A stretch of DNA of 12,827 nucleotides, taken from IMG/VR virus record IMGVR_UViG_2671180864_000011; one strand, given 5' to 3'. This DNA comes from a virus. Lineage: Duplodnaviria > Heunggongvirae > Uroviricota > Caudoviricetes. Shown here in pieces: positions 1,483 through 12,673 of this stretch. The notes beneath the pieces were generated by a model. It worked only from the letters and a program-made list of their open reading frames with translations, was not told the origin of the DNA and did no database searches. The position numbers were made by a program, and so were the translations under genes. Positions within the stretch are counted from its first letter, which is position 1. Every line of letters starts with the position of its first letter.

Positions 1483-1983
1483 TTAGGCGCGACGGCCTTT
1501 TTGTGCAGCTAACCACCGCGCAACCGTACGATCCATTGATTCTTTTTTATCTTTCATCTCCTGAAGCATGTGTTCTTGATCTTCTTTCGGAAAAGCTCTG
1601 AACGTATGGATTAAATCTCGTTCCATCGGCTCTACGGCAAACGGTAGTTCATCCTCTGTTTGTTCTGTGTCTGCTGGTAATGCGACTATGTTATCTTGCT
1701 GTGGTTCTCGACAATACATCCTTGCAATTTGCAGCAAATCTACCATGTCTGGCCTGATTGACTCAGGGGGAACTTTCAGTAAGCCAGCAAACTTTAGAAC
1801 AGCCTCAAGGTTTAGTGGGGTTTGACCATTTAGGTAGTGACTTACCGCCCCTTGTGTTGAAAACCCCATAATTTCCGCCGCACGTTCCTGAGTCAATCCC
1901 AACTGAGATTTCTTTGCCATCCAGATTTCTTTCAGTCTTCTGGCGGCGTTGAGGTCGGTGTCTGACAATGATTTTCTTTTCAT
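1483..1983 (-). CDS. XRE-family HTH transcriptional repressor (CI-like prophage repressor / PaaR2-like); the ORF also extends to a GTG at 2013
   Basis: HTH segment LTQERAAEIMGFSTQGAVSHYLNGQ. C-terminal ~80 aa are acidic with no S24 peptidase-like region. Divergent from a cro-like gene with dyad operators between them. First gene of the operon containing the antitoxin and parE. Confidence 0.8.
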   Translation of the reverse strand: MKRKSLSDTDLNAARRLKEIWMAKKSQLGLTQERAAEIMGFSTQGAVSHYLNGQTPLNLEAVLKFAGLLKVPPESIRPDMVDLLQIARMYCREPQQDNIVALPADTEQTEDELPFAVEPMERDLIHTFRAFPKEDQEHMLQEMKDKKESMDRTVARWLAAQKGRRA

Positions 1984-2018
1984 ACATCCAATTCTAATAA
2001 GATTGCTAATCACTTTGA

Positions 2019-2058
2019 AATAGCATCACTATTTACTTTTAAAAATAACAGTGCTATT
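2019..2058. promoter_or_regulatory. OR-like operator pair: 15-bp dyads at 2019..2033 (AATAGCATCACTATT) and 2044..2058 (AATAACAGTGCTATT), overlapping divergent promoters
   Basis: Inverted half-sites AATAG/CTATT; centres 25 bp apart. A -10-like TATTAA at 2055..2060 lies 35 bp upstream of the cro-like ATG; TTGAAA at 2015..2020 is a possible -35. Confidence 0.55.
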
Positions 2059-2094
2059 AATTATGCATTGGTAACACATCACATAGGGCGGATT

Positions 2095-2358
2095 ATGAAT
2101 CTTGGAGAATATTTGCATCATTTTCATATAACCCAGAGTTCATTTGCTGAGATTGTTGGCGCATCCCAAGGGATGGTCAGCCACGTTATAACGGGGCGTG
2201 CAAAACTTACAGGAGAAAAAATATTACGTTGGTGTGAAGCAACGGGATGGGTGGTGACCCCACATGAGATTGACAGTAAAACCTACCCCAACCCAACTGA
2301 CGGCTTGCCTGCTGAGTTTCAGGCTAACACACAACCATCGGCGGGGGTTGATTCATGA
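2095..2358 (+). CDS. Cro/YdaS-like HTH regulator (ORF opens at a TTG at 2068; ATG at 2095 preferred)
   Basis: Short protein with HTH segment FHITQSSFAEIVGASQGMVSHVITGRAKLTGEKILRW. Divergent from the repressor. Its stop overlaps the next gene's start (ATGA at 2355..2358). Confidence 0.75.
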   Translation: MNLGEYLHHFHITQSSFAEIVGASQGMVSHVITGRAKLTGEKILRWCEATGWVVTPHEIDSKTYPNPTDGLPAEFQANTQPSAGVDS

Positions 2359-2780
2359 AAATCAAGCATGAACACATCCGCATGGCGATGAAAGCCTGGG
2401 CGCATCCGGACGGTGAAAAAGTTCCGGCAGCTGAAATAACCAGGGTTTATTTCGAACTGGGAATGACGTTTCCGGTTCTGCATAACGACAGCAAGCACAA
2501 CACGCTTTATCTCAACACCCAAAAGATTTTCCGTTGGCTGGATAAAGACACCCCTGACGCTGTTGAAAAAATTCAGGCGTTGTTACCTGCGATCGAAAGG
2601 GCAATGCCACCTCCGCTGGTGGCTCGAATGCGCAGCCACAGTTCAGCTTATTTTCGGGAACTGGTGGAGACGCATGAACGACTGGTGAGAGACGCTGATG
2701 ATTTTGTCGCAGTGGCAATCGCCGGTTTCAATCAGATGAACCGTGGTGGCCCGGCAGGAAATGCTGTGGCAGTACATTGA
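2355..2780 (+). CDS. YdaT-like protein (proposed CII-type regulator; historically annotated as a toxin)
   Basis: 141-aa ORF translationally coupled to the cro/YdaS-like gene, in the position and size of ydaT in Rac-type prophages. Family assignment is by gene order and recollection, not a search. Confidence 0.55.
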   Translation: MKIKHEHIRMAMKAWAHPDGEKVPAAEITRVYFELGMTFPVLHNDSKHNTLYLNTQKIFRWLDKDTPDAVEKIQALLPAIERAMPPPLVARMRSHSSAYFRELVETHERLVRDADDFVAVAIAGFNQMNRGGPAGNAVAVH

Positions 2781-2851
2781 CTGACAATAGCCATATCGAA
2801 TCGCTCCCGGCAACTCGTGAGTAAAAAGATTCGGTATCAGAAGAGGTGAGT

Positions 2852-3916
2852 ATGGCTAACGCCTGGCTCAGATTATGGCATGACATGCCAAATGACCCTA
2901 AGTGGCGAACAATTGCCAGGGTGTCAGGGCAGCCAATTGCAACAGTGATGGCAGTGTATATCCACCTCCTGGTGAGCGCGTCACGAAATGTCACGCGAGG
3001 TCACATTGATGTCACGACAGAAGATTTGGCAAGTGCGCTCGACGTGACAGAAGAGGTAATTGATTCAATTTTGCAGACGATGCAGGGGCGGGTACTTGAT
3101 GGTGATTTAATCACTGGATGGGAAAAACGCCAGGTGCTTAAAGAGGACAACGGCAATATTTCGCAAACCGCAAAATCTCCTGCAGAGCGCAAGAGGGCGC
3201 AGCGAGAGAGGGAAAGAAAGCGGGAACAAAATGGCGATTGTCACGGCGCGTCACGAAATGTCACGCACATGTCACGACGAGTCACGACAGATACAGATAA
3301 AGATACAGATAAAGAAGATCAAAACACTATGGTCCATGGCGTAAAAAACGCCACGAACCAGGCAGGGGATGTTCAGACCGTCAATCCTGGTCAGCCAGCA
3401 GGCTCGACACCGGAAGCCGATTCAGCGTATGCGCTGAAAGCCGATTCGGGCGCTGTGCAGCAGGTGATGACCGCAAGGCCGGAGCAATCACTCCAACTGC
3501 AGCAGCCTGAAGCCGATTCCGCCATTCAGCGGGAAGCCGATCGGGTAGCCCCGGAAAACACCGGGCAGCCTGTGGGACGAGTGGATTATCCGGATGTGTT
3601 CGAACAGGTCTGGCGGGAATACCCGTTGCGTGCCGGGGCAAACCCGAAGAAATCCGCATTCAGTGCCTGGAAGGCCAGATTGCGCGAGGGGGTGCCACCA
3701 GAGACCATGCTGGATGGTGTGAGGCGTTACGCGAGATACCTGGCGGCGACCGGGAAAGCGGGAACGGAATTTGTTCAGCGAGCGACGACGTTTTTTGGGC
3801 CGGACCGGAATTTTGAAAACCCCTGGTTGCTCCCGGTAAGCGGCACGAACAACCAGCGTTGTGTGAATCATATTTCTGAACCGGATACCGAAATTCCGCC
3901 GGGATTCAGGGGGTGA
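2852..3916 (+). CDS. phage replication initiator / replisome organiser (lambda O analogue, YdaU-like)
   Basis: AAGAGG Shine-Dalgarno 5 nt before the ATG at 2852 (ORF opens at a GTG at 2846). Sits directly upstream of the DnaC-like gene. Contains two clusters of GTCACG direct repeats and low-complexity charged stretches (ERKRAQRERERKRE, TDTDKDTDKED). Confidence 0.65.
   Translation: MANAWLRLWHDMPNDPKWRTIARVSGQPIATVMAVYIHLLVSASRNVTRGHIDVTTEDLASALDVTEEVIDSILQTMQGRVLDGDLITGWEKRQVLKEDNGNISQTAKSPAERKRAQRERERKREQNGDCHGASRNVTHMSRRVTTDTDKDTDKEDQNTMVHGVKNATNQAGDVQTVNPGQPAGSTPEADSAYALKADSGAVQQVMTARPEQSLQLQQPEADSAIQREADRVAPENTGQPVGRVDYPDVFEQVWREYPLRAGANPKKSAFSAWKARLREGVPPETMLDGVRRYARYLAATGKAGTEFVQRATTFFGPDRNFENPWLLPVSGTNNQRCVNHISEPDTEIPPGFRG
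2976..3019. repeat. iteron-like cluster A: GTCAC(G/A) at 2980, 2990, 3000 and 3011 (10-11 bp phasing)
   Basis: Direct hexamer repeats at helical-turn spacing inside the initiator gene. The 21-mer GCGCGTCACGAAATGTCACGC at 2976..2996 recurs exactly at 3246..3266. Confidence 0.55.
3240..3312. repeat. iteron-like cluster B: five GTCACG at 3240, 3250, 3260, 3271 and 3281, then a 12-bp tandem AGATACAGATAA x2 (3289..3312)
   Basis: Five phased hexamers followed by an A/T-richer tandem repeat; layout resembles the intragenic origin of lambdoid phages. Confidence 0.55.
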
Positions 3917-3922
3917 TGTGGC

Positions 3923-4669
3923 ATGAAAAACATTGCGGCAGCCGGGGTTCTTGAACGTATTCACAGACTTGCACCACAGGGGGCGGTTCCACCGTACCGG
4001 ACGGTGGAGGAGTGGCGGGAATGGCAACTTGCTGAAGGACGAAAACGCAGCGAGGAGATTAACCGCCAGAATCGCCAGTTGCGGGTGGAAAAAATCCTGA
4101 ATCGTTCGGGCATCCAGCCTCTGCACAGCAAATGCTCGTTTGCGAATTATCAGGTGCAGAACGACGGGCAAAAATACGCGCTGAGCCAGGCCAAATCCAT
4201 AGCTGACGAACTGATGACCGGGTGCACGAATTTTGTGTTCAGCGGTAAAACCGGCACCGGGAAAAATCACCTTGCAGCGGCGATGGGTAACCGGCTGATG
4301 GCGAAGGGGCGCAGCGTGATTATCGTCACCGAGTCTGATGTCATGAGCGTGTTGCATGACAGCTACGACAACGGCAAATCCGGTGAAAAATTTTTACAGG
4401 AGCTTTGCGGGGTTGATTTGCTGGTCCTGGATGAAATAGGCATTCAGCGGGAGACGAAAAACGAGCAGGTGGTATTGCACCAGATAATTGATCGCCGGAC
4501 AGCATCACTGTGCAGTGTCGGGATGTTAACAAACCTGAATCATGCCGCAATGAGCACGCTTCTTGGTGAGAGGATTATGGACCGCATGACCATGAACGGT
4601 TGTCGGTGGGTGACGTTTAACTGGGATAGCTGGCGTTCAAATGTCAGCTTTCCGGGAGTTGTGAAGTAA
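3923..4669 (+). CDS. DnaC-like AAA+ helicase-loader ATPase (phage P-analogue, YdaV-like)
   Basis: Walker A FSGKTGTGKNHLAAAMG and Walker B LLVLDEIG. Start lies 7 nt after the initiator stop, preceded by a GGGGGTGA Shine-Dalgarno. Confidence 0.85.
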   Translation: MKNIAAAGVLERIHRLAPQGAVPPYRTVEEWREWQLAEGRKRSEEINRQNRQLRVEKILNRSGIQPLHSKCSFANYQVQNDGQKYALSQAKSIADELMTGCTNFVFSGKTGTGKNHLAAAMGNRLMAKGRSVIIVTESDVMSVLHDSYDNGKSGEKFLQELCGVDLLVLDEIGIQRETKNEQVVLHQIIDRRTASLCSVGMLTNLNHAAMSTLLGERIMDRMTMNGCRWVTFNWDSWRSNVSFPGVVK

Positions 4670-4690
4670 TTTTTGTTGGAGGATGTTTTA

Positions 4691-5416
4691 ATGGAAACTG
4701 TATTTGACGCACTGAAAGCACTGAAAAGAGCCTCTTCACATGTGGTGGCGTCCCGCCTTGGAATCAGCCGTGAAGATGCGGTCAACGAACTGTGGAAACT
4801 GAAGCGCCGTGGTGAAGCGGATAACAAGGGTTCGATGTGGTGGCTGATTCAGGCTGGTGAAAGTGAACCAGTGTCACCGGTACCGAAAGTGACAGCGCAA
4901 ATGCTGACTGAGGCGATTGAACAACATGGCCCACAAACGGCGGATGAGCTGGCACTGATGTTCGGGATTACCTCCCGCCGGGCGAATTCATCGCTGGCCA
5001 TGGCAATCAGCAAAGGGCGTCTGATTCGCGTGAATCAGGGCGGTAAATTTCGGTACTGCATACCGGGCGCTGATTTACCGGCAGAGCCGAAAGCCGCATC
5101 CATAGCGGAAACGGATGGTAAAGTCTTTCCTCAGCCAGCAGGTGTTGCGTTACCGGTACAGGAAGCTGCAACACAGGAAGAAATTAAAACAGAAACTGTG
5201 GCGGACATTGTGCAGTCGTTGCCATCGTTCACCGAAACGCAAGCGGATGACCTGGTTTTACCATCGCTGCATATGGCAAACCGCGAACTGCGTCGGGCGA
5301 AAAGTCATGTCCAGAAGTGGGAGCGTGTCTGCGCCGCGTTGCGGGAGCTGAACAAGCACCGGGATATTGTTCGACAGATTGTCGATTCCTCCGGTCGTAT
5401 TGTGTCGGAAAAGTGA
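4691..5416 (+). CDS. hypothetical protein (241 aa) with possible N-terminal winged-helix-like region
   Basis: ATG at 4691 preceded by GGAGGA (the track ORF opens at a TTG at 4673). N-terminal segment [27 protein letters not shown]. No catalytic motif recognised. Confidence 0.6.
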
Positions 5417-5431
5417 TTGCCGGGGGCGCTT

Positions 5432-5854
5432 ATGGCAAAAGTATTTACACAGGAAGAGCGGGAAAAAATTAAGGGGCAGGTTGTTGAACTCGTACGCCAG
5501 AGTGGGCGCGAGACGTTACGACAACTGGAAGCTAAAACCGGGGCGACAAGATATTTAATAAGCGTTCTCGCCAGAGAGCTGGTTGCCAGTGGGGATGTAT
5601 ACAACTCTGGCTACGGGTTATTCCCGTCTGAACAGGCTCGTAAGGACTGGCAAAACGCCCGCAAAAAACTCTCGAGGGCAAAGCTGAAGAAACCATCTGT
5701 GGTTGATCCGGACCTTATCTGGTCATTACCAGACGGAGAAATACGCCGCTACGACAGACATCAGAACATAATCTGTCGCGAGTGCCGGAAGAGTGAAGTT
5801 ATGCAGCGTGTACCGGCTTTCTATCAGGGTGATTTTCAGGAGGCGGTACTGTGA
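5432..5854 (+). CDS. hypothetical protein (140 aa), possible winged-helix N-terminus and C-terminal CxxC
   Basis: ATG at 5432 (track ORF opens at a TTG at 5417). A diverged, 5'-truncated second copy at 8744..9133 differs mostly at synonymous sites, which argues the reading frame is real and under selection. Confidence 0.6.
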   Translation: MAKVFTQEEREKIKGQVVELVRQSGRETLRQLEAKTGATRYLISVLARELVASGDVYNSGYGLFPSEQARKDWQNARKKLSRAKLKKPSVVDPDLIWSLPDGEIRRYDRHQNIICRECRKSEVMQRVPAFYQGDFQEAVL

Positions 5855-7470
5855 GTGAAATTAGCTATCAGGCTTCAATTACCGCTGGCATTCGCATCAA
5901 AGGAGAGGAGCATGGAAATAAAACCAGAAGATGAGTTAAGCAATATTGTTTTATTTCCGGTAAAAGAGGATAACCCTCGTAATCAGGTTAATTTTCTTTA
6001 TGAGCCATCGGAAAGACCATATTGCCATCACGCTTCTGTCCGGGTTGACGAAAAAGAGCGTCAGGTCCGCTGTAAAATTTGCGGTGCAGTTGTGGAGCCA
6101 TTTGACTGGATGCTCTCTGTGGCGAAAAGAGAAACCAGACTGGCAGATGATGTAAGGCTCTTGCGCCAGGAGGAGCGGGAAAGGCGAAAAAATATAGAAA
6201 AGCTAATCCAGATTGAGCGTAATGCGAAAGCGCGGATACGCAGGGTGACAAAATATAGCCCCGAATAATCAAGGTTATTTCTGGAAGTCAAGTCGTGAGT
6301 GATGAGGACTAACAAATACGGTGAACTCGATAAAGAGATTCAGGACGAACTGGAGGCCAGGAATGATTGACAAATCACCAAGTGAGTTCAGCTACAAAGA
6401 TTTATTGTCATAACGGGTTATGAGATCGACTTGGTGCGTGATATTCTTCGGGCCAGTTTGCTATGCGCCACCATGAGATGTTATGGCCCGCATGTTTGAT
6501 ACATTAGGATTTTACATTATGAATGTGCAACATTTTGATTTTTTTACAGATAATGAGTTTTCTAATCTGGAAAGATATCAAACTTGTAAAGCCATGGCCA
6601 AAGGTTATGCGGGCAATTACAAAACCGGGCAGTCAAGGTTGATGCATGCCCGCTCATACTGCTTCAGCATCGTAGCTGCATATTGGGATACCCTTGCAAA
6701 AAAGCAAAAAAGCAGCATTAAAATGAGGGCAGTACCGCACACTGTTTACATAGAAGACATTCCATGTGATGCACGCGAGCTCGCTGAACGAACAGGTGAG
6801 CTTATTGCTCAATTTCCGGCGGAGGACGCTGGATATCTGATTGGGTCAATTTATACGGTAATGCTGCCATCCGCTTACCGTTCGGAATTGGGGGCTTACT
6901 ATACCCCCCCACCTTTGGTAGCGCGTCTCTTGGACCTGGCTGAAAAGTCTGGTGTTGATTTTTCTCATGCATCGGTTATTGATCCTGCGTGTGGTGGCGG
7001 TGCATTTTTGGCACCAGTAGCCATTCGAATGTTAAAAAAAGACAAGGGGTCTTCCCCTGAATGGATGTTGAGGAGAATCAGTCGTCGTTTAAAGGGGATA
7101 GAAATCGATCCATTTGCGGCTTGGATGAGTTTGGTATTGCTCGAATCTGTACTAATGCCACTATGTGTAAAGGTAAAACGTAGATTGCCTGAAGATACAA
7201 TTATTGTTGCTGATGCGCTTCAGCAAGATAAATTTTCTGGTTATGATCTTGTGGTAGGGAATCCGCCTTACGGACGTGTCACTCTCGATATTAAAACGAG
7301 AGAAAAATATTCTCGTTCGTTATTTGGTCATGCAAATCTATATGGATTGTTCACCGACTTAGCTGTTCGCATGGTTAAAGAGAAAACAGGAGTTATTGCA
7401 TTTCTTACGCCAACTTCTTTTCTTGGTGGGCAGTATTTCACCGCGCTGCGAACCCTTTTGACCGAAAAAA
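5465..7470. repeat. copy 1 of a ~2.0-kb direct repeat (140-aa gene, zinc-ribbon gene, leader, methyltransferase 5' half)
   Basis: Collinear with 8744..10749 at a constant offset of 3279 bp. Encoded proteins are identical from about 5710 onward; the first ~245 bp carry multiple substitutions. Confidence 0.85.
5912..6268 (+). CDS. hypothetical zinc-ribbon-like protein with basic coiled-coil tail (118 aa), copy 1
   Basis: Strong Shine-Dalgarno AAAGGAGAGGAG before the ATG at 5912 (track ORF opens at a GTG at 5855). C-H-H...C-K-I-C spacing suggests a metal-binding ribbon; C-terminus RLLRQEERERRKNIEKLIQIERNAKARIRR. An identical copy lies at 9191..9547. Confidence 0.6.
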   Translation: MEIKPEDELSNIVLFPVKEDNPRNQVNFLYEPSERPYCHHASVRVDEKERQVRCKICGAVVEPFDWMLSVAKRETRLADDVRLLRQEERERRKNIEKLIQIERNAKARIRRVTKYSPE

Positions 7471-7526
7471 ATTGGCTAATGAGGTGTACTGGCAATAGCG
7501 GACACTACCATTTGTTCTTTTTTTAA
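6483..7526 (+). pseudogene. 3'-truncated copy of the N6-adenine DNA methyltransferase gene
   Basis: First 329 codons are identical to the intact gene at 9762..11594. Homology ends at 7470, followed by 9 unrelated bp and the IS left end at 7480. The ORF then reads through unrelated sequence to a stop at 7526. Motifs X, I and IV are retained; the C-terminal domain is lost. Confidence 0.8.
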
Positions 7527-8341
7527 GCAGCCATCTGATGATATTTTTCCCTGAAGGCTGCCGGGGAGATATTCCCCAGACGAGAGTGACGACGCTGACG
7601 ATTGTAGAAAATCTCAATGTATTCCCGTATTACTGAGATGGCTTCATCCCGGTTATTAAAACGATAGTGGCTCAGGCTCTCATTTTTCAGCGTTCCCCAG
7701 AAGCTTTCCATCGGAGCGTTGTCGTAACAGTTACCTTTACGCGACATTGATGTTTTCAGACCAGACTGCTCCTGTATGACCCGGTAATCGTATGCGCAGT
7801 ACTGTGAACCTCGATCAGAGTGGTGGATTAGCCCGGCAGGTGGGCGCTGGCTCCTGAGCGCCATAAACAGGGCTTTACCTGTCAGCTCTTTTGTCATGCG
7901 CTCTCCCATGGCGTAGCCGACAATTTCGCACGTATAAACATCTTTGATGCCAGCGAGGTACAACCATCCCTCCTGTGTGGCAACATACGTCAGGTCCGCC
8001 ACCCAGACCTGATTTGGTGCTGTAGGAGCGAACGTCTGGTTCAGCAGATTTGGCGCAACTGGCAGATTGTGGTTCGAGTTCGTAGTCGCTCTGAACTTGC
8101 GTTTCTGCTTACAGCGTAGCCTTAGCTCCTTACGAAGACGTGCCAGTCGGTCACGACCAACGATGATGCCATTCTCTGCCAGCTCCGTCTGGAGCCGCCG
8201 GGTTCCATATGTTTCGCGAGTGCGGATATGTGCCACCTTAATCTCCAGTTTTAGCCGCTCATCACTTTGTTTTCTGTCTGAGGGTTCATGCTGTACCCAG
8301 TTGTAATAACCGCTCCTGGATACACCAAATACCTGACACAT
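7523..8341 (-). CDS. IS3-family transposase OrfB (DDE catalytic domain), normally made as an OrfAB fusion by -1 frameshifting
   Basis: 272-aa ORF in the -1 frame relative to orfA. Integrase-type catalytic core typical of IS3 OrfB (VWVADLTY ... HHSDRGSQY ... NAPMESFWGTLK). Confidence 0.85.
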   Translation of the reverse strand: MCQVFGVSRSGYYNWVQHEPSDRKQSDERLKLEIKVAHIRTRETYGTRRLQTELAENGIIVGRDRLARLRKELRLRCKQKRKFRATTNSNHNLPVAPNLLNQTFAPTAPNQVWVADLTYVATQEGWLYLAGIKDVYTCEIVGYAMGERMTKELTGKALFMALRSQRPPAGLIHHSDRGSQYCAYDYRVIQEQSGLKTSMSRKGNCYDNAPMESFWGTLKNESLSHYRFNNRDEAISVIREYIEIFYNRQRRHSRLGNISPAAFREKYHQMAA

Positions 8342-8376
8342 CGCTTCAATGGGAAATTGTTGTCGCCATTGTTCGA

Positions 8377-8679
8377 TTAACGCGTATTTTTCAGCGACTC
8401 CTGTGCAAAATACGCTGTTGCTTTTTTTAATATATCTCGCTCAAGGCGAGCTTCATTTAACGCCTTACGCAGTTGCAGAATTTCAGATTCCAGTTCAGCC
8501 ACCGTGCGGGAACCAGGAGTACCGAGCCCTTTTCTGGCGGCGGTAACCCATTGTCCTAAAGTGCCTTCAGGAAGAGATAATCGGGAAGCGCCTTCACTGA
8601 TCGAAAGTTGATTTTCAGGAACCGTTCTGACAGCTTCGGCTTTGAACTCTTTAGAGTAACGTTGGGTTTTTCTGCTCAT
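8377..8679 (-). CDS. IS3-family transposase OrfA (HTH DNA-binding subunit)
   Basis: 100-aa ORF with a leucine-zipper-like C-terminus (ELESEILQLRKALNEARLERDILKKATAYFAQ) ending just after the slippery run. Confidence 0.85.
   Translation of the reverse strand: MSRKTQRYSKEFKAEAVRTVPENQLSISEGASRLSLPEGTLGQWVTAARKGLGTPGSRTVAELESEILQLRKALNEARLERDILKKATAYFAQESLKNTR
8422..8428 (-). other. programmed -1 ribosomal frameshift slippery run (A AAA AAA G on the minus strand) for OrfAB
   Basis: Seven consecutive T on the plus strand inside the orfA codons for L-K-K-A, in the orfA/orfB overlap. Confidence 0.6.
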
Positions 8680-8743
8680 TATTAGCTCCTTCTGATGCCA
8701 TTCTATTTCAGGAAGGAGTGTCCGTTAAACTCAGGCTACCTCA

Positions 8744-9133
8744 AAAATTAAAGGGCAGGTTGTTGAACTTGTACGTCTGAGCGGTCGCGAGACGTTGCGG
8801 CAACTGGAAGCCAAGACAGGTGCGACAAGATATCTGATGAGTGTTCTCGCCAGAGAGCTGGTTGCCAGTGGCGATGTATACAACTCTGGTTACGGGTTAT
8901 TCCCGTCTGAACAGGCGCGTAAGGACTGGCAAAACGCCCGCAAAAAACTCTCAAGGGCAAATCTGAAGAAACCATCTGTGGTTGATCCTGACCTTATCTG
9001 GTCATTACCAGACGGAGAAATACGCCGCTACGACAGACATCAGAACATAATCTGTCGCGAGTGCCGGAAGAGTGAAGTTATGCAGCGTGTACCGGCTTTC
9101 TATCAGGGTGATTTTCAGGAGGCGGTACTGTGA
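8744..9133 (+). pseudogene. 5'-truncated, diverged second copy of the 140-aa hypothetical gene
   Basis: Homology to 5465..5854 begins immediately after the IS right end and lacks the first 11 codons. About 20 nucleotide differences but only 3 amino-acid changes (Q to L, I to M, K to N). The track ORF 8795..9133 begins at an internal Met. Confidence 0.7.
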
Positions 9134-9190
9134 GTGAAATTAGCTATCAGGCTTCAATTACCGCTGGCATTCGCATCAAAGGAGAGGAGC

Positions 9191-9547
9191 ATGGAAATAA
9201 AACCAGAAGATGAGTTAAGCAATATTGTTTTATTTCCGGTAAAAGAGGATAACCCTCGTAATCAGGTTAATTTTCTTTATGAGCCATCGGAAAGACCATA
9301 TTGCCATCACGCTTCTGTCCGGGTTGACGAAAAAGAGCGTCAGGTCCGCTGTAAAATTTGCGGTGCAGTTGTGGAGCCATTTGACTGGATGCTCTCTGTG
9401 GCGAAAAGAGAAACCAGACTGGCAGATGATGTAAGGCTCTTGCGCCAGGAGGAGCGGGAAAGGCGAAAAAATATAGAAAAGCTAATCCAGATTGAGCGTA
9501 ATGCGAAAGCGCGGATACGCAGGGTGACAAAATATAGCCCCGAATAA
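9191..9547 (+). CDS. hypothetical zinc-ribbon-like protein, copy 2 (protein identical to copy 1)
   Basis: Same Shine-Dalgarno and ATG context as copy 1; translation identical. Confidence 0.6.
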   Translation: MEIKPEDELSNIVLFPVKEDNPRNQVNFLYEPSERPYCHHASVRVDEKERQVRCKICGAVVEPFDWMLSVAKRETRLADDVRLLRQEERERRKNIEKLIQIERNAKARIRRVTKYSPE

Positions 9548-9761
9548 TCAAGGTTATTTCTGGAAGTCAAGTCGTGAGTGATGAGGACTAACAAATACGG
9601 TGAACTCGATAAAGAGATTCAGGACGAACTGGAGGCCAGGAATGATTGACAAATCACCAAGTGAGTTCAGCTACAAAGATTTATTGTCATAACGGGTTAT
9701 GAGATCGACTTGGTGCGTGATATTCTTCGGGCCAGTTTGCTATGCGCCACCATGAGATGTT

Positions 9762-11594
9762 ATGGCCCGCATGTTTGATACATTAGGATTTTACATTATG
9801 AATGTGCAACATTTTGATTTTTTTACAGATAATGAGTTTTCTAATCTGGAAAGATATCAAACTTGTAAAGCCATGGCCAAAGGTTATGCGGGCAATTACA
9901 AAACCGGGCAGTCAAGGTTGATGCATGCCCGCTCATACTGCTTCAGCATCGTAGCTGCATATTGGGATACCCTTGCAAAAAAGCAAAAAAGCAGCATTAA
10001 AATGAGGGCAGTACCGCACACTGTTTACATAGAAGACATTCCATGTGATGCACGCGAGCTCGCTGAACGAACAGGTGAGCTTATTGCTCAATTTCCGGCG
10101 GAGGACGCTGGATATCTGATTGGGTCAATTTATACGGTAATGCTGCCATCCGCTTACCGTTCGGAATTGGGGGCTTACTATACCCCCCCACCTTTGGTAG
10201 CGCGTCTCTTGGACCTGGCTGAAAAGTCTGGTGTTGATTTTTCTCATGCATCGGTTATTGATCCTGCGTGTGGTGGCGGTGCATTTTTGGCACCAGTAGC
10301 CATTCGAATGTTAAAAAAAGACAAGGGGTCTTCCCCTGAATGGATGTTGAGGAGAATCAGTCGTCGTTTAAAGGGGATAGAAATCGATCCATTTGCGGCT
10401 TGGATGAGTTTGGTATTGCTCGAATCTGTACTAATGCCACTATGTGTAAAGGTAAAACGTAGATTGCCTGAAGATACAATTATTGTTGCTGATGCGCTTC
10501 AGCAAGATAAATTTTCTGGTTATGATCTTGTGGTAGGGAATCCGCCTTACGGACGTGTCACTCTCGATATTAAAACGAGAGAAAAATATTCTCGTTCGTT
10601 ATTTGGTCATGCAAATCTATATGGATTGTTCACCGACTTAGCTGTTCGCATGGTTAAAGAGAAAACAGGAGTTATTGCATTTCTTACGCCAACTTCTTTT
10701 CTTGGTGGGCAGTATTTCACCGCGCTGCGAACCCTTTTGACCGAAAAAACTACTCCGTATGCCCTTGATTTCGTCACTGACAGGGATGGGGTCTTTGACG
10801 ATGTTCTCCAGGAAACAATGTTGACAGCATTCAAGGCGGGAGAACATAAAGTTCGGGCCCAGGTATCCTCACTTGTCCCTAAGGGGTTGAACAAAGCAAA
10901 AATTGAGAAAATAGGTAATGTTGATATAGAAAAAGGTGGAGCAACGTGGCTTTTGCCACGCGTTAAAGATGATGCCTGTTTTCTTAATGTATTAAAACAG
11001 ATGTCTACGCGTTTAGCTGATCTGGGATACTCAGTCTCTACAGGTCAGTTAGTCTGGAATCGATTTAAGTCGCAGTTGCGTACGACGAAAGGAAAAAATA
11101 GCTACCCATTAGTCTGGGCGGAATCAATAACTTCAGCTGGTTTTCGTTTTAGTGCAGACAGAAAAAATCATGTTCCCTATATCGATATAACCCCACAACA
11201 GGGTTTCCTTGTGACAAAATCTGAATGTGTGCTTGTTCAGCGGACAACATCGAAGGAACAGGACAGAAGGATTTTAGCGGCAATTTTACCTCAGGGATTT
11301 ATAGATGAAACTGGTGGCGTAGTAGTTGAAAACCATATTAATATTGTATATTCAAACGGATTGTTCTCTGCGGTTCGCCCTGATGTTATTGATATGCTAC
11401 TTAATTCGCATGTTGTCGATCGGGCGTTCAGGTGTATAAGCGGAAGTGTTGCTGTTTCGGCCTATGAATTGAATTCAATCCCGTTGCCTTCTCTGGAGCA
11501 GGTGATGGAGATTCAATCGTTAATTGATGCTGGCGTCCACAGACGGATTATTGAGAGAACTATCGCTGGTTTCTATGGAGTGATGATTGCATGA
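9762..11594 (+). CDS. gamma-class N6-adenine DNA methyltransferase (type II RM-type; possible true start at ATG 9798)
   Basis: Motif order X (GAYYTPPPLVARLL), I (DPACGGGAFL), IV (VVGNPPYGR), followed by a ~340-aa C-terminal region consistent with a target-recognition domain. AGGA lies 9 nt before the ATG at 9798; the ATG at 9762 has no Shine-Dalgarno. Confidence 0.85.
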   Translation: MARMFDTLGFYIMNVQHFDFFTDNEFSNLERYQTCKAMAKGYAGNYKTGQSRLMHARSYCFSIVAAYWDTLAKKQKSSIKMRAVPHTVYIEDIPCDARELAERTGELIAQFPAEDAGYLIGSIYTVMLPSAYRSELGAYYTPPPLVARLLDLAEKSGVDFSHASVIDPACGGGAFLAPVAIRMLKKDKGSSPEWMLRRISRRLKGIEIDPFAAWMSLVLLESVLMPLCVKVKRRLPEDTIIVADALQQDKFSGYDLVVGNPPYGRVTLDIKTREKYSRSLFGHANLYGLFTDLAVRMVKEKTGVIAFLTPTSFLGGQYFTALRTLLTEKTTPYALDFVTDRDGVFDDVLQETMLTAFKAGEHKVRAQVSSLVPKGLNKAKIEKIGNVDIEKGGATWLLPRVKDDACFLNVLKQMSTRLADLGYSVSTGQLVWNRFKSQLRTTKGKNSYPLVWAESITSAGFRFSADRKNHVPYIDITPQQGFLVTKSECVLVQRTTSKEQDRRILAAILPQGFIDETGGVVVENHINIVYSNGLFSAVRPDVIDMLLNSHVVDRAFRCISGSVAVSAYELNSIPLPSLEQVMEIQSLIDAGVHRRIIERTIAGFYGVMIA

Positions 11595-12673
11595 ATCTGC
11601 CTGTTGTTCCCCCATTGAATGTTATCCGGGAAAGATTACAATTAATTTTCCCTGAAGGGACTGAGAATCGTGGATATTTAATTCGGGAAATAGCTGCAAA
11701 AACAATTTTTGTCATGTTTTATGCTGGTGCGGTTGAGGGGCTGGGGCGATGGATAAGGCCCAGCCAGGTTGTAAGTATGGGAGATTCGCAGGCTGCTCTT
11801 ACTGATGATGCGTCCAGAGAAAGCTGGGTAAAGATGACTTTCTCTAAACAAAAGATAAGGCCTGCTGATGCATGGTATGCGGAAAATACGCGTGAGCCAA
11901 TACGTGATGAAACTATAAAAAATGGCCTAATACCTTGCAATGCAATTGTTGAGCGTAAAGGTATACCCACCACATCCTCTCGTCCTCGTTACAGTTTGAA
12001 TCGCTCTTTTGCAGCACTCTTTGATGCCGGGCTTGAAGGAGATTCGCTGCTGAGTGCAATAAGTTCCTGGCAAGAAAATCATTTGAACAAAGCCGCTCTT
12101 GCTAGGTTGCGTTTATTGAAATCAGGGGCAGTGATTGCTGCTGATGCCGTAGTCGTCACTTTCCCAAATGGAGAGAAGAGAACTTTAGCTCCGGGCCCGT
12201 CAAGTACAATAGCTAAGGCCGTCATCGAAGTTTTTGCTCCTAATTTTCTTAAGAATCCAACTGTGCTCTGGTTGTCTGAATCCGGGAATAAAGTTGTTGC
12301 TCAGGATGATGTATTGGCAAAAGCATTGGGGCTGAATATTGATGCCTCAAAAGCACTTCCAGATATTATTTTGATTGATTTGGGAGAGGACCGAACGGGT
12401 TCGGACATGCTTGTAGTTTTCACTGAAGTAGTTGCGACAGATGGGCCTATAAACAGGGAACGAAAAGTTACTCTCACTCATTTGGCTATTGACGCTGGGT
12501 TCAGCGAGAAAAATCTTGCATTCCTTACGGCATTTATGGACAGAAGTGCTCTGCCTTTTAAAAAGGCAATACCAGAATTGGCGTGGGGATCTTATGCATG
12601 GTTTGCTTCTGAACCGGAGCACTTAATTGATCTTCGGGATGGTTATCCGGTAAAGATCAGCCAGAGAAAATGA
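11591..12673 (+). CDS. putative restriction endonuclease partner of the methyltransferase (possibly BsuBI/PstI-like); function not proven
   Basis: 360-aa ORF whose ATG overlaps the methyltransferase stop (ATGA at 11591..11594). Same AT-rich composition as the methyltransferase. No unambiguous PD-(D/E)xK motif identified by eye, so the call rests on gene context. Confidence 0.5.
   Translation: MNLPVVPPLNVIRERLQLIFPEGTENRGYLIREIAAKTIFVMFYAGAVEGLGRWIRPSQVVSMGDSQAALTDDASRESWVKMTFSKQKIRPADAWYAENTREPIRDETIKNGLIPCNAIVERKGIPTTSSRPRYSLNRSFAALFDAGLEGDSLLSAISSWQENHLNKAALARLRLLKSGAVIAADAVVVTFPNGEKRTLAPGPSSTIAKAVIEVFAPNFLKNPTVLWLSESGNKVVAQDDVLAKALGLNIDASKALPDIILIDLGEDRTGSDMLVVFTEVVATDGPINRERKVTLTHLAIDAGFSEKNLAFLTAFMDRSALPFKKAIPELAWGSYAWFASEPEHLIDLRDGYPVKISQRK

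Follow-up and report, generated by a model that had tools for sequence, protein, structure and literature searches.

Common accessory genes, each shuffled on its own among lambda-like prophages, next to an independently acquired restriction-modification pair

Introduction

Mutants of phage lambda defective in ren are Rex-sensitive, and the gene is dispensable for growth. A preprint describes ren as co-transcribed with O and P and as "likely involved in DNA replication", and it reports that the Rex proteins interact with both O and Ren in two-hybrid assays (bioRxiv 10.1101/2021.04.19.439022). Among the relatives of Ren treated below are proteins of the DUF977 family, which was classed as winged helix in earlier work (PMC2686095) and to which LygF of the Rac-like phages belongs. 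LygF is a name without an attached function, and no functional study on LygF, DUF977, DUF1627 or Ren-like proteins was found in the literature.

The DUF1627 family is represented in Escherichia coli K-12 by YdaW of the Rac prophage, which has been catalogued as a predicted transcription factor (PMC9308461). In addition, an overexpression screen published as a preprint includes K-12 YdaW in its list of prophage genes that block RcaT, the toxin of retron-Sen2; 11 hits of that screen were re-tested, and ydaW is not shown to have been one of them (bioRxiv 10.1101/2020.06.22.160242). This listing as a retron-toxin "blocker" is the sole functional datum on YdaW. A further preprint has located PasA/PasC near DUF1627 genes; no Pas-type sRNA was found in the window studied here.

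The three genes and their operon context

The window, that is, the whole stretch of DNA analysed, comprises 12,827 nucleotides (IMG/VR record IMGVR_UViG_2671180864_000011), and its source host is almost certainly Shigella sonnei. Three consecutive ORFs lie on its + strand: ORF1 (4691-5416, 241 aa) for a YdaW-family protein (Pfam DUF1627), ORF2 (5432-5854, 140 aa) for a DUF977/LygF protein of the lambda Ren family, and ORF3 (5912-6268, 118 aa) for a C-x-H...C-x2-C zinc-ribbon protein of phrog_1621. The first-pass annotation had described three same-strand ORFs of these lengths with ribosome-binding sites, and they were indeed found in place, each ATG being preceded by a Shine-Dalgarno-like motif read from the sequence (GGAGGA at 4678-4683 for ORF1, GGGGG at 5422-5426 for ORF2 and AAGGAGAGGAG at 5900-5910 for ORF3). 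When compared with other alleles, all three ORFs are under purifying selection, with dN/dS values of 0.07-0.29 (0.21-0.29 for ORF1, 0.08-0.15 for ORF2 and 0.07-0.11 for ORF3), and profile searches returned a protein-family match for each of them, with E-values from 1e-30 to 1e-121. On these two grounds, ORF1, ORF2 and ORF3 are real genes. No NCBIfam model matches any of the three, searches of the PDB by sequence gave no match at E <= 0.1 for ORF1 and ORF2 and none at all for the ORF3 profile, and Rfam and tRNA scans of the window returned no matches.

ORF1-3 are located directly 3' of the genes for a replisome organiser and a DnaC-like helicase loader, in the place that ren occupies in lambda; the earlier placement of the three among lambdoid accessory genes therefore holds. 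A simple consensus scan of positions 4500-6600 detected neither a promoter-like site nor a terminator-like site on the + strand, so that ORF1-3 are probably transcribed with the replication genes. This arrangement, immediately 3' of the organiser and loader genes with no intervening promoter or terminator, is compatible with a role as accessory factors of replication that bind either the origin or the complex of organiser and helicase loader and take no part in defence. In relatives, genes of these types are likewise placed beside different loaders, P-like or DnaC-like, and the lambda literature considers ren "likely involved in DNA replication" (bioRxiv 10.1101/2021.04.19.439022). Moreover, tandem winged-helix folds, such as that of ScpB, are common as protein and DNA adaptors. 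However, ORF1 and ORF3 are missing from many otherwise similar prophages and thus cannot be essential replication components. The dispensability of lambda ren for growth and the location of ORF3 relatives far from replication genes in other phages also weigh against a pure replication function, which we retain as a tentative explanation only.

ORF1 and the YdaW family

On sequence evidence, ORF1 is a homologue of E. coli K-12 Rac YdaW (b1361), with which it shares 57% identity over residues 1-139 (E 2e-56), and a member of DUF1627. It matches the entire PF07789 profile (1-155/155) at 5.9e-93 (309.2 bits, with a gathering threshold of 28.1) and phrog_630 at 1.7e-121. As in K-12, the gene comes after a DnaC-like ydaV homologue; YdaW, on the other hand, has 186 aa and is truncated by the Rac deletion, whereas ORF1 is full length and retains a disordered linker and a C-terminal helix. 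The AF2 model of ORF1 predicts an N-terminal three-helix HTH, a classical winged helix at residues 69-123, a disordered region at 131-189, which forms an acidic linker, and a long C-terminal helix. When searched with Foldseek, this model gave weak E-values to MarR/ArsR-type proteins and to proteins with tandem winged helices, all of them generic winged-helix matches. The sole basis for a Ren-like winged helix shared by ORF1 would be weak PHROG matches of about 2e-4, and the comparison of ORF2 with ORF1 by hhalign, made from shallow alignments, stays below significance (E 0.039, probability 1.3%).

The winged-helix fold raises the question of whether ORF1-3 could be transcription regulators, as repressors or activators of the winged-helix type with specific operators, that act in the lysis-lysogeny decision or in the early-to-late programme. 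Such a function would agree with weak profile matches to MarR, TrmB, Crp and ArsR types and with the inclusion of K-12 YdaW among predicted transcription factors (PMC9308461), but it is unlikely: operator-like repeats were looked for near ORF1-3 and none were found, the cI-like, cro-like and CII/YdaT-like slots are already occupied upstream in the window, and ORF1-3 are freely gained and lost among prophages that carry the same regulators.

ORF2 and the lambda Ren family

ORF2 matches the whole PF06163 (DUF977) profile (1-134/134) at 2.2e-30 (105.9 bits, gathering threshold 22.1) and, over its full length, phrog_142, the "Ren-like exclusion protein" family (2e-46, profile 1-115/116). The same PHROG profile detects lambda Ren at 1.6e-41 (profile 11-110/116), and an iterated HMM seeded with ORF2 picks up lambda Ren at 7.7e-24. 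The Pfam match places ORF2 in DUF977/LygF, and the two profile-based links to Ren, which extend over the full length, place it in the family of lambda Ren. The protein consists of an N-terminal winged helix and a conserved C-terminal motif, CRECRKSEVMQRV, that aligns with Ren (BLASTP 1e-5; hhalign 1.8e-5), a pattern of the form (I/F)xECRxSxxMxRV being common to both.

Like ORF2, Ren is a small winged-helix protein encoded in the early right operon just 3' of the replication genes. The two nevertheless differ in several respects. Ren has 96 aa against the 140 aa of ORF2 and does not reach Pfam DUF977, whereas ORF2 does, and their pairwise similarity is undetectable outside the C-terminal motif of about 20 residues. 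Furthermore, ren follows directly after P, whereas here ORF1 intervenes between the loader gene and ORF2; in two related loci the DnaC-like gene is followed directly by the DUF977 gene. No substantial difference separates ORF2 from the LygF/DUF977 proteins of Rac-like phages (for example phage Rac MN652886, Rac-SA53 and mEp460), which belong to the same family, are encoded in the order ydaV-ydaW-lygF and share 85-90% DNA identity with this locus.

ORF3 and its zinc-ribbon relatives

ORF3 matches phrog_1621 at 1.1e-54, and its family forms 1664 clusters when the representative library is grouped at 50% identity; no relative was found in Pfam, NCBIfam or the PDB. Its metal ligands C38, H40, C54 and C57 do not vary across 29 sequences, and among 40 distant relatives C38, C54 and C57 remain invariant while H40 is at least 90% conserved. 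All 40 of these relatives match the small zinc-ribbon phage proteins of phrog_1621 and phrog_8538, and 39 of them also match phrog_4865. The ribbon is accompanied by a conserved basic helix, LRxEExxRRxNIEKLIQIERNAKARIRR, and the AF2 model (pLDDT 73.7) places the ribbon at residues 43-61 and one long helix at 63-115. The TFIIB-type zinc ribbon PF08271 scores 21.6 bits against ORF3, below its gathering threshold of 29, and Foldseek searches of the model against PDB and BFVD gave nothing at E < 0.1 and zinc-ribbon resemblances only, headed by the TFIIB ribbon 1pft at E 0.2. The likeness of ORF3 to the TFIIB ribbon is a resemblance only.

The structural reading of the first-pass annotation is confirmed by these comparisons. 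The winged-helix-like N-termini proposed for two of the proteins correspond to the winged helix of the ORF1 model and to the classification of DUF977, and the C/H...CxxC ribbon with a basic coiled-coil proposed for the third corresponds to C38/H40/C54/C57 and the basic helix at 63-115. The folds are of the nucleic-acid-binding rather than the enzymatic type, as had been suggested, and no enzymatic domain is present.

As regards genomic context, the ORF3 family occurs in the nin regions of many enterobacterial phages. At 60 of 83 loci the gene is followed by a DUF7167-like ORF, and eight relatives with 44-72% identity have neighbours that look NinB-, RusA-, methylase- and Q-like by reading of their N-terminal sequences, with no ORF1 or ORF2. 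Pattern searches for the contexts of very distant, high-GC relatives returned enterobacterial loci only.

Independent assortment among prophages

The distribution of the three genes was surveyed in 5426 complete E. coli genomes. ORF1-like DNA is present in 2396 of them, ORF2-like DNA in 4103 and ORF3-like DNA in 1679, and the contiguous arrangement ORF1-ORF2-ORF3 is found in 233. At 109 non-redundant loci, ORF3 has ORF2 as its immediate neighbour in 50 cases and in its vicinity, though not adjoining, in 32; ORF2 is missing from the other 27. Parts of the block were matched by 37 of the 50,697 phage records searched. ORF1-3 are, in consequence of this independent assortment, three separate mosaic units and not the cassette that had been proposed. 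Neither do they constitute an undescribed module, since Pfam DUF families cover two of the genes and PHROG families all three. They belong to gene families that were already known and, as accessory genes, are common in lambda-like prophages, where each is shuffled on its own.

The adjacent restriction-modification pair

A mosaic junction at the stop codon of ORF3 marks the beginning of an insert that opens with a spacer (6269-6482, + strand) and carries a PstI-family endonuclease and methyltransferase. A functional link between this methyltransferase and the three genes had been put forward, and the distribution of the pair contradicts it. The PstI-type restriction-modification (RM) pair is present in 2 of the 5426 E. 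coli genomes, compared with 1679-4103 for ORF1-3. Of the 1679 genomes with ORF3, 1677 lose similarity at its stop (query positions 343-361), and only the 2 RM genomes continue beyond it. Finally, methyltransferase relatives in 54 other species are accompanied by an REase in 44 cases and by ORF1, ORF2 or ORF3 in none (0/54). The pair is therefore an independently acquired insert just after the ORF3 stop, functionally untied to ORF1-3, and the comparison across genomes revealed no conserved association of the three genes with the methyltransferase. No match to the RM pair was found in the 50,697 phage records. The 214-nt spacer shows 100% identity among all Escherichia/Shigella loci that bear the RM pair, and it could not be detected in the RM loci of other species. 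The identity points to a single insertion event.

In type II RM systems, controller (C) proteins are encoded, like ORF3, by a small gene directly upstream of the methyltransferase/endonuclease pair, but they contain an Xre-type HTH, whereas ORF3 combines a zinc ribbon with a coiled coil. ORF3 is moreover found without any RM in 1677 of its 1679 E. coli carriers and is absent from the RM relatives in 54 species. A C-protein-like role of ORF3 and a linkage to the RM pair were rejected on distribution.

The segment 5464-7470 is repeated at 8743-10749 with an offset of 3279 nt, the ends of the duplication falling within ORF2 and within the methyltransferase gene. An IS3-family, IS600-like insertion sequence of 1264 bp (7480-8743, - strand) occupies the junction of the tandem copies; it encodes OrfA (HTH_Tnp_1) and OrfB (rve and HTH_21), has terminal inverted repeats TGAGGT... 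and is present at other positions in related contigs. The second, 5'-truncated copy of ORF2 (8744-9133, + strand) abuts the IS600 end and lacks about the first 10 codons and the ribosome-binding site, and the second copy of ORF3 (9191-9547, + strand), inside the duplicated segment, is identical to the first. The ORF2 copies differ by 22 substitutions, all of them in 5473-5710 (19 synonymous and 3 non-synonymous), and 5711-7470 and 8990-10749 have zero mismatches. One further locus and eight complete genomes, the latter with an identical ORF1 protein, have an un-duplicated form.

The duplicated block is thus an IS600-bounded segmental tandem duplication that does not respect gene boundaries; with its ends inside ORF2 and the methyltransferase gene, it is not a gene-boundary unit. 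The block was rejected as a functional unit on account of these IS600-defined ends inside two genes and of the un-duplicated form. The joint duplication of ORF2, ORF3 and the 5' half of the methyltransferase, once taken as a hint of linkage, is real, but the linkage drawn from it does not stand.

It follows from this distribution that ORF1-3 are most improbable as dedicated RM partners, whether as a controller, an anti-restriction or timing module, or a specificity factor travelling with the methyltransferase. The placement of ORF3 directly upstream in every Escherichia/Shigella RM locus, with the identical 214-nt spacer, and the duplication of ORF3 and part of ORF2 along with the methyltransferase 5' half could be cited for such a partnership. 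Nonetheless, the identical spacer points to a single insertion event, the duplication ends are set by the IS and cut both ORF2 and the methyltransferase, and ORF3 lacks a C-protein-type HTH. The rarity of the RM pair beside ORF3 (1679 genomes) and ORF2 (4103), the stop of similarity at the ORF3 end in all genomes without RM, and the 54 other-species RM loci devoid of ORF1-3 also oppose it.

Proposed role of ORF1-3

The explanation that we favour, with a probability of about 75%, is that ORF1-3 are ordinary accessory genes of the early right operon, of the YdaW, Ren and zinc-ribbon types, in a Rac/lambda-type cryptic prophage, that the RM pair is unlinked to them, and that their role, as far as it can be inferred, is that of Ren-type modulators. 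After induction or infection, the genes would probably be transcribed together with those for replication, and their products may be small modulators that bind DNA or protein and work on or close to the phage replication complex. In analogy to Ren, they might keep Rex and other abortive-infection systems, or toxins of the retron type, from being triggered by phage replication. This counter-exclusion is the best-supported specific role, to which we give somewhat less than even odds; a direct replication-accessory role appears less probable, and the rest falls to other regulation. The proposal of a regulatory, anti-defence or exclusion module accordingly survives in part: an anti-defence flavour is plausible by homology, through ORF2 to Ren and through YdaW to the retron toxin, while the undescribed module is not. 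What the analysis has uncovered is largely the contrary outcome that the first-pass annotation had itself named, namely Rac and lambdoid homology without a conserved tie to the methyltransferase, with the roles of the homologues known only phenotypically.

Counter-exclusion on behalf of the phage has to be distinguished from superinfection exclusion or defence that would protect the lysogen. Cargo genes for defence and addiction abound in the neighbourhood, with the RM pair here and ParDE and HokD in relatives. Yet PADLOC defence-system models gave no match to ORF2 or ORF3 and a chance-level one to ORF1 (0.0099), the genes have no promoter of their own and lie inside an operon repressed in the lysogen, and Ren, the sole characterised relative, acts on behalf of the infecting phage rather than the host. 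A lysogen-protecting function is therefore very unlikely.

Significance

The S. sonnei prophage is a remnant without late genes, so that ORF1-3 may have no current role in the host, and as a starting point for study this decayed locus offers no advantage over lambda or an inducible phage of the Rac type. A modest interest remains: the mechanism of lambda Ren has been unexplained for decades while relatives of Ren are present in approximately three quarters of complete E. coli genomes, and the large zinc-ribbon family of ORF3 is entirely without characterised members. Neither the point on Ren nor the one on ORF3 is new. It is conceivable, though improbable, that Ren- and YdaW-type proteins, and especially the ORF3 family, form a counter-defence set that silences abortive-infection sensors (Rex-like systems and retron toxins) in early replication; if true, the ORF3 family, with >1,600 clusters at 50% identity, would be a new and widespread anti-defence family. 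The main value of the analysis is the removal of a false lead: the association of the block with the RM pair stems from mosaic insertion and IS-mediated duplication, and not from a shared function.

Genomic setting of ORF1, ORF2 and ORF3

The window has the appearance of a lambdoid prophage's immunity and early-right region. Its plus strand carries a cro-like gene and then a YdaT/CII-like gene (2355-2780), followed by a replisome organiser (2846-3916; phrog_3729), a DnaC-like loader (3923-4669), and then ORF1 (4691-5416, 241 aa), ORF2 (5432-5854, 140 aa) and ORF3 (5912-6268, 118 aa). The minus strand carries genes for an HTH_3 regulator (1483-2013), a PaaA2 antitoxin (1269-1463) and a ParE toxin (979-1269), together a PaaR2-PaaA2-ParE2-like three-gene toxin-antitoxin operon (979-2013) at the usual cI repressor position of lambdoid prophages. 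Upstream of this operon, also on the minus strand, lie two small ORFs (171-754; 125 and 68 aa) that match phrog_33007 and phrog_751, neither of which has an assigned function.

The coordinates and lengths of the three ORFs are exactly those of the first-pass annotation, and the ribosome-binding sites it proposed are borne out by a Shine-Dalgarno-like motif before each. Comparison with other alleles yields dN/dS values of 0.21-0.29 for ORF1, 0.08-0.15 for ORF2 and 0.07-0.11 for ORF3, indicating that all are genuine genes. A simple consensus scan of 4500-6600 returned no promoter-like and no plus-strand terminator-like site, which fits their co-transcription with the replication genes.

Shigella sonnei supplies the nearest matches (99-100% identical proteins), and thousands of assemblies contain the exact ORF1 protein. 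Eight complete genomes with an identical ORF1 (4.8-5.0 Mb; L221-L228) carry the order DnaC-like gene, ORF1, ORF2, ORF3, methyltransferase, endonuclease. An IS1 transposase is called directly after the endonuclease gene in six of them, and in all eight ordinary chromosomal genes lie downstream (mannitol dehydrogenase, ydfZ, GntR regulator). The element is thus the remnant of a prophage, devoid of late genes (no Q, lysis or structural genes).

Family membership of the three proteins

ORF1 matches Pfam DUF1627 (309 bits) and phrog_630 (1.7e-121), and the N-terminal 139 residues of YdaW from the Rac prophage of E. coli K-12 are 57% identical to it (E 2e-56); the ydaW gene likewise comes after a DnaC-like gene, ydaV. 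In the AlphaFold model (overall pLDDT 63, but 85-90 for domain two), residues 1-50 form a three-helix HTH and 69-123 a classical winged helix, 131-189 are acidic and disordered, and the C-terminal part is a long helix. Foldseek searches with this model retrieved MarR/ArsR-type and tandem winged-helix proteins with weak E-values.

ORF2 matches Pfam DUF977 (2.2e-30) and is annotated 'LygF' in phage records. Both ORF2 (2e-46) and lambda Ren (1.6e-41) match phrog_142, 'Ren-like exclusion protein', over nearly the full length of each protein. The two share a C-terminal motif (BLASTP 1e-5, hhalign 1.8e-5), and an iterated HMM, seeded with ORF2 and run over the comparison loci, recovers lambda Ren at 7.7e-24. 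Position agrees too, as lambda ren directly follows P.

ORF3 belongs to phrog_1621 (1.1e-54), a family of unknown function with homologues in Escherichia, Shigella, Salmonella, Klebsiella, Serratia, Erwinia and Yersinia. Across 29 sequences, C38, H40, C54 and C57 do not vary, and conservation of the C-terminal helix is striking; the predicted structure combines a small ribbon with a single long helix. Searching 1.84 billion representatives with a profile gave 1664 clusters, and no function-giving relative was found in Pfam, NCBIfam, PDB or by structure search. The earlier structural guesses proved good, while the proposal of an undescribed module gives way to catalogued DUF1627/YdaW, DUF977/Ren-like and phrog_1621 members.

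Nor do the genes really form a cassette, as had been proposed. Of 109 non-redundant ORF3 loci, 28 have the complete ORF1-ORF2-ORF3 order; ORF2 adjoins ORF3 at 50 of the 109, lies close by but apart from it at 32, and is missing from 27. Both E. coli genomes bearing the restriction-modification (RM) pair lack ORF1, and one has DUF4406 and Ea22-like genes between ORF2 and ORF3. ORF3 relatives of 44-72% identity occupy nin regions of other phages without ORF1 or ORF2, beside genes that would be NinB-, RusA-, adenine-methylase- and Q-like by a reading of their N-terminal sequences.

Relationship to the RM pair

A functional link to the methyltransferase, also put forward earlier, is contradicted by the distribution of the genes. 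Among 5426 complete E. coli genomes, ORF1-like DNA is present in 2396, ORF2-like in 4103 and ORF3-like in 1679, with all three contiguous in 233; the methyltransferase and PstI-family endonuclease occur in two. The pair had zero matches among 50,697 phage records. Another 54 species, ranging from Erwinia to Spirochaetia and Methanoregula, carry methyltransferase relatives (40-67% identity), with an adjoining endonuclease gene in 44 of them and ORF1, ORF2 or ORF3 in none. The gene after ORF3 is a DUF7167-like ORF at 60 of 83 ORF3-containing loci and the methyltransferase at seven. When ORF3 and its downstream spacer were used as query, the match ended at the ORF3 stop codon except in the two RM genomes. 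The 214-nt spacer is 100% identical across RM-bearing Escherichia/Shigella loci and undetectable elsewhere, which points to arrival of the pair in one insertion event.

The pair itself (9762-12673) comprises a PstI/BsuBI-family endonuclease and an Eco57I/N6-type methyltransferase, rare in Escherichia. With relatives in Erwinia, Alteromonas, Burkholderia, Xanthomonas, Spirochaetia, Acidobacteriota and one methanogen (L007-L060, 40-67% identity), it is a typical horizontally mobile pair. The alignment with methyltransferase homologues of other species begins only at residues 7-13 (MNVQHFDF), and one public annotation places the start 36 nt further on, so the second ATG is probably the true start (6519/9798 rather than 6483/9762).

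The duplicated block had been taken as a hint of linkage. Segment 5464-7470 is repeated at 8743-10749, with an IS600-like element of the IS3 family (7480-8743, 1264 bp) at the junction. The duplicated segment begins inside ORF2, at about codon 11, and stops inside the methyltransferase gene, at about codon 330; contig L064 and the eight complete genomes retain the un-duplicated, ancestral arrangement. Since the ends cut genes, an IS lies at the junction and un-duplicated forms exist, the duplication is no evidence of functional linkage. The copies differ at 22 positions, all in 5473-5710 (vs 8752-8989) within the first 250 nt (19 synonymous, 3 non-synonymous in ORF2), with no difference in the other ~1760 nt. 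The truncated ORF2 copy resembles a different allele, and the confinement of the differences suggests that recombination with another allele, perhaps from another prophage, took part in the history of the duplication.

Nine bases (ATTGGCTAA, 7471-7479) that match neither copy separate the broken methyltransferase gene from the IS600-like end. The left methyltransferase copy (6483-7526) keeps the N-terminal part and NPPY motif, loses about the last 280 residues and reads on through these nine bases and the IS terminus, and is probably inactive. In related S. sonnei-like contigs the same IS lies inside ORF2 (L063) or ~110 bp past ORF3 (L068).

Possible functions

Functional information is available only for two relatives of these proteins, lambda Ren and K-12 YdaW. 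In classical genetics, Ren lets lambda escape exclusion by Rex. One source has lambda ren transcribed together with O and P, calls it 'likely involved in DNA replication' and reports two-hybrid contacts of Rex proteins with O and Ren (bioRxiv 10.1101/2021.04.19.439022). An overexpression screen lists K-12 YdaW as one of the prophage-gene blockers of the retron-Sen2 toxin RcaT (bioRxiv 10.1101/2020.06.22.160242). For the three proteins of the window, a plain replication-accessory role ranks second in probability; transcriptional regulation and exclusion protecting the host are regarded as less likely. On the basis of Ren and YdaW, the favoured reading, to which we assign a probability of about 40%, is that ORF1-3 would encode small DNA- or protein-binding modulators, produced together with the replication proteins, that would stop abortive-infection sensors from firing.

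A large share of E. coli and Shigella genomes contain the three genes, which are not linked to the RM pair and are in this sense an ordinary finding. What stays of interest is the unexplained biology of Ren-type proteins and the unannotated ORF3 family.
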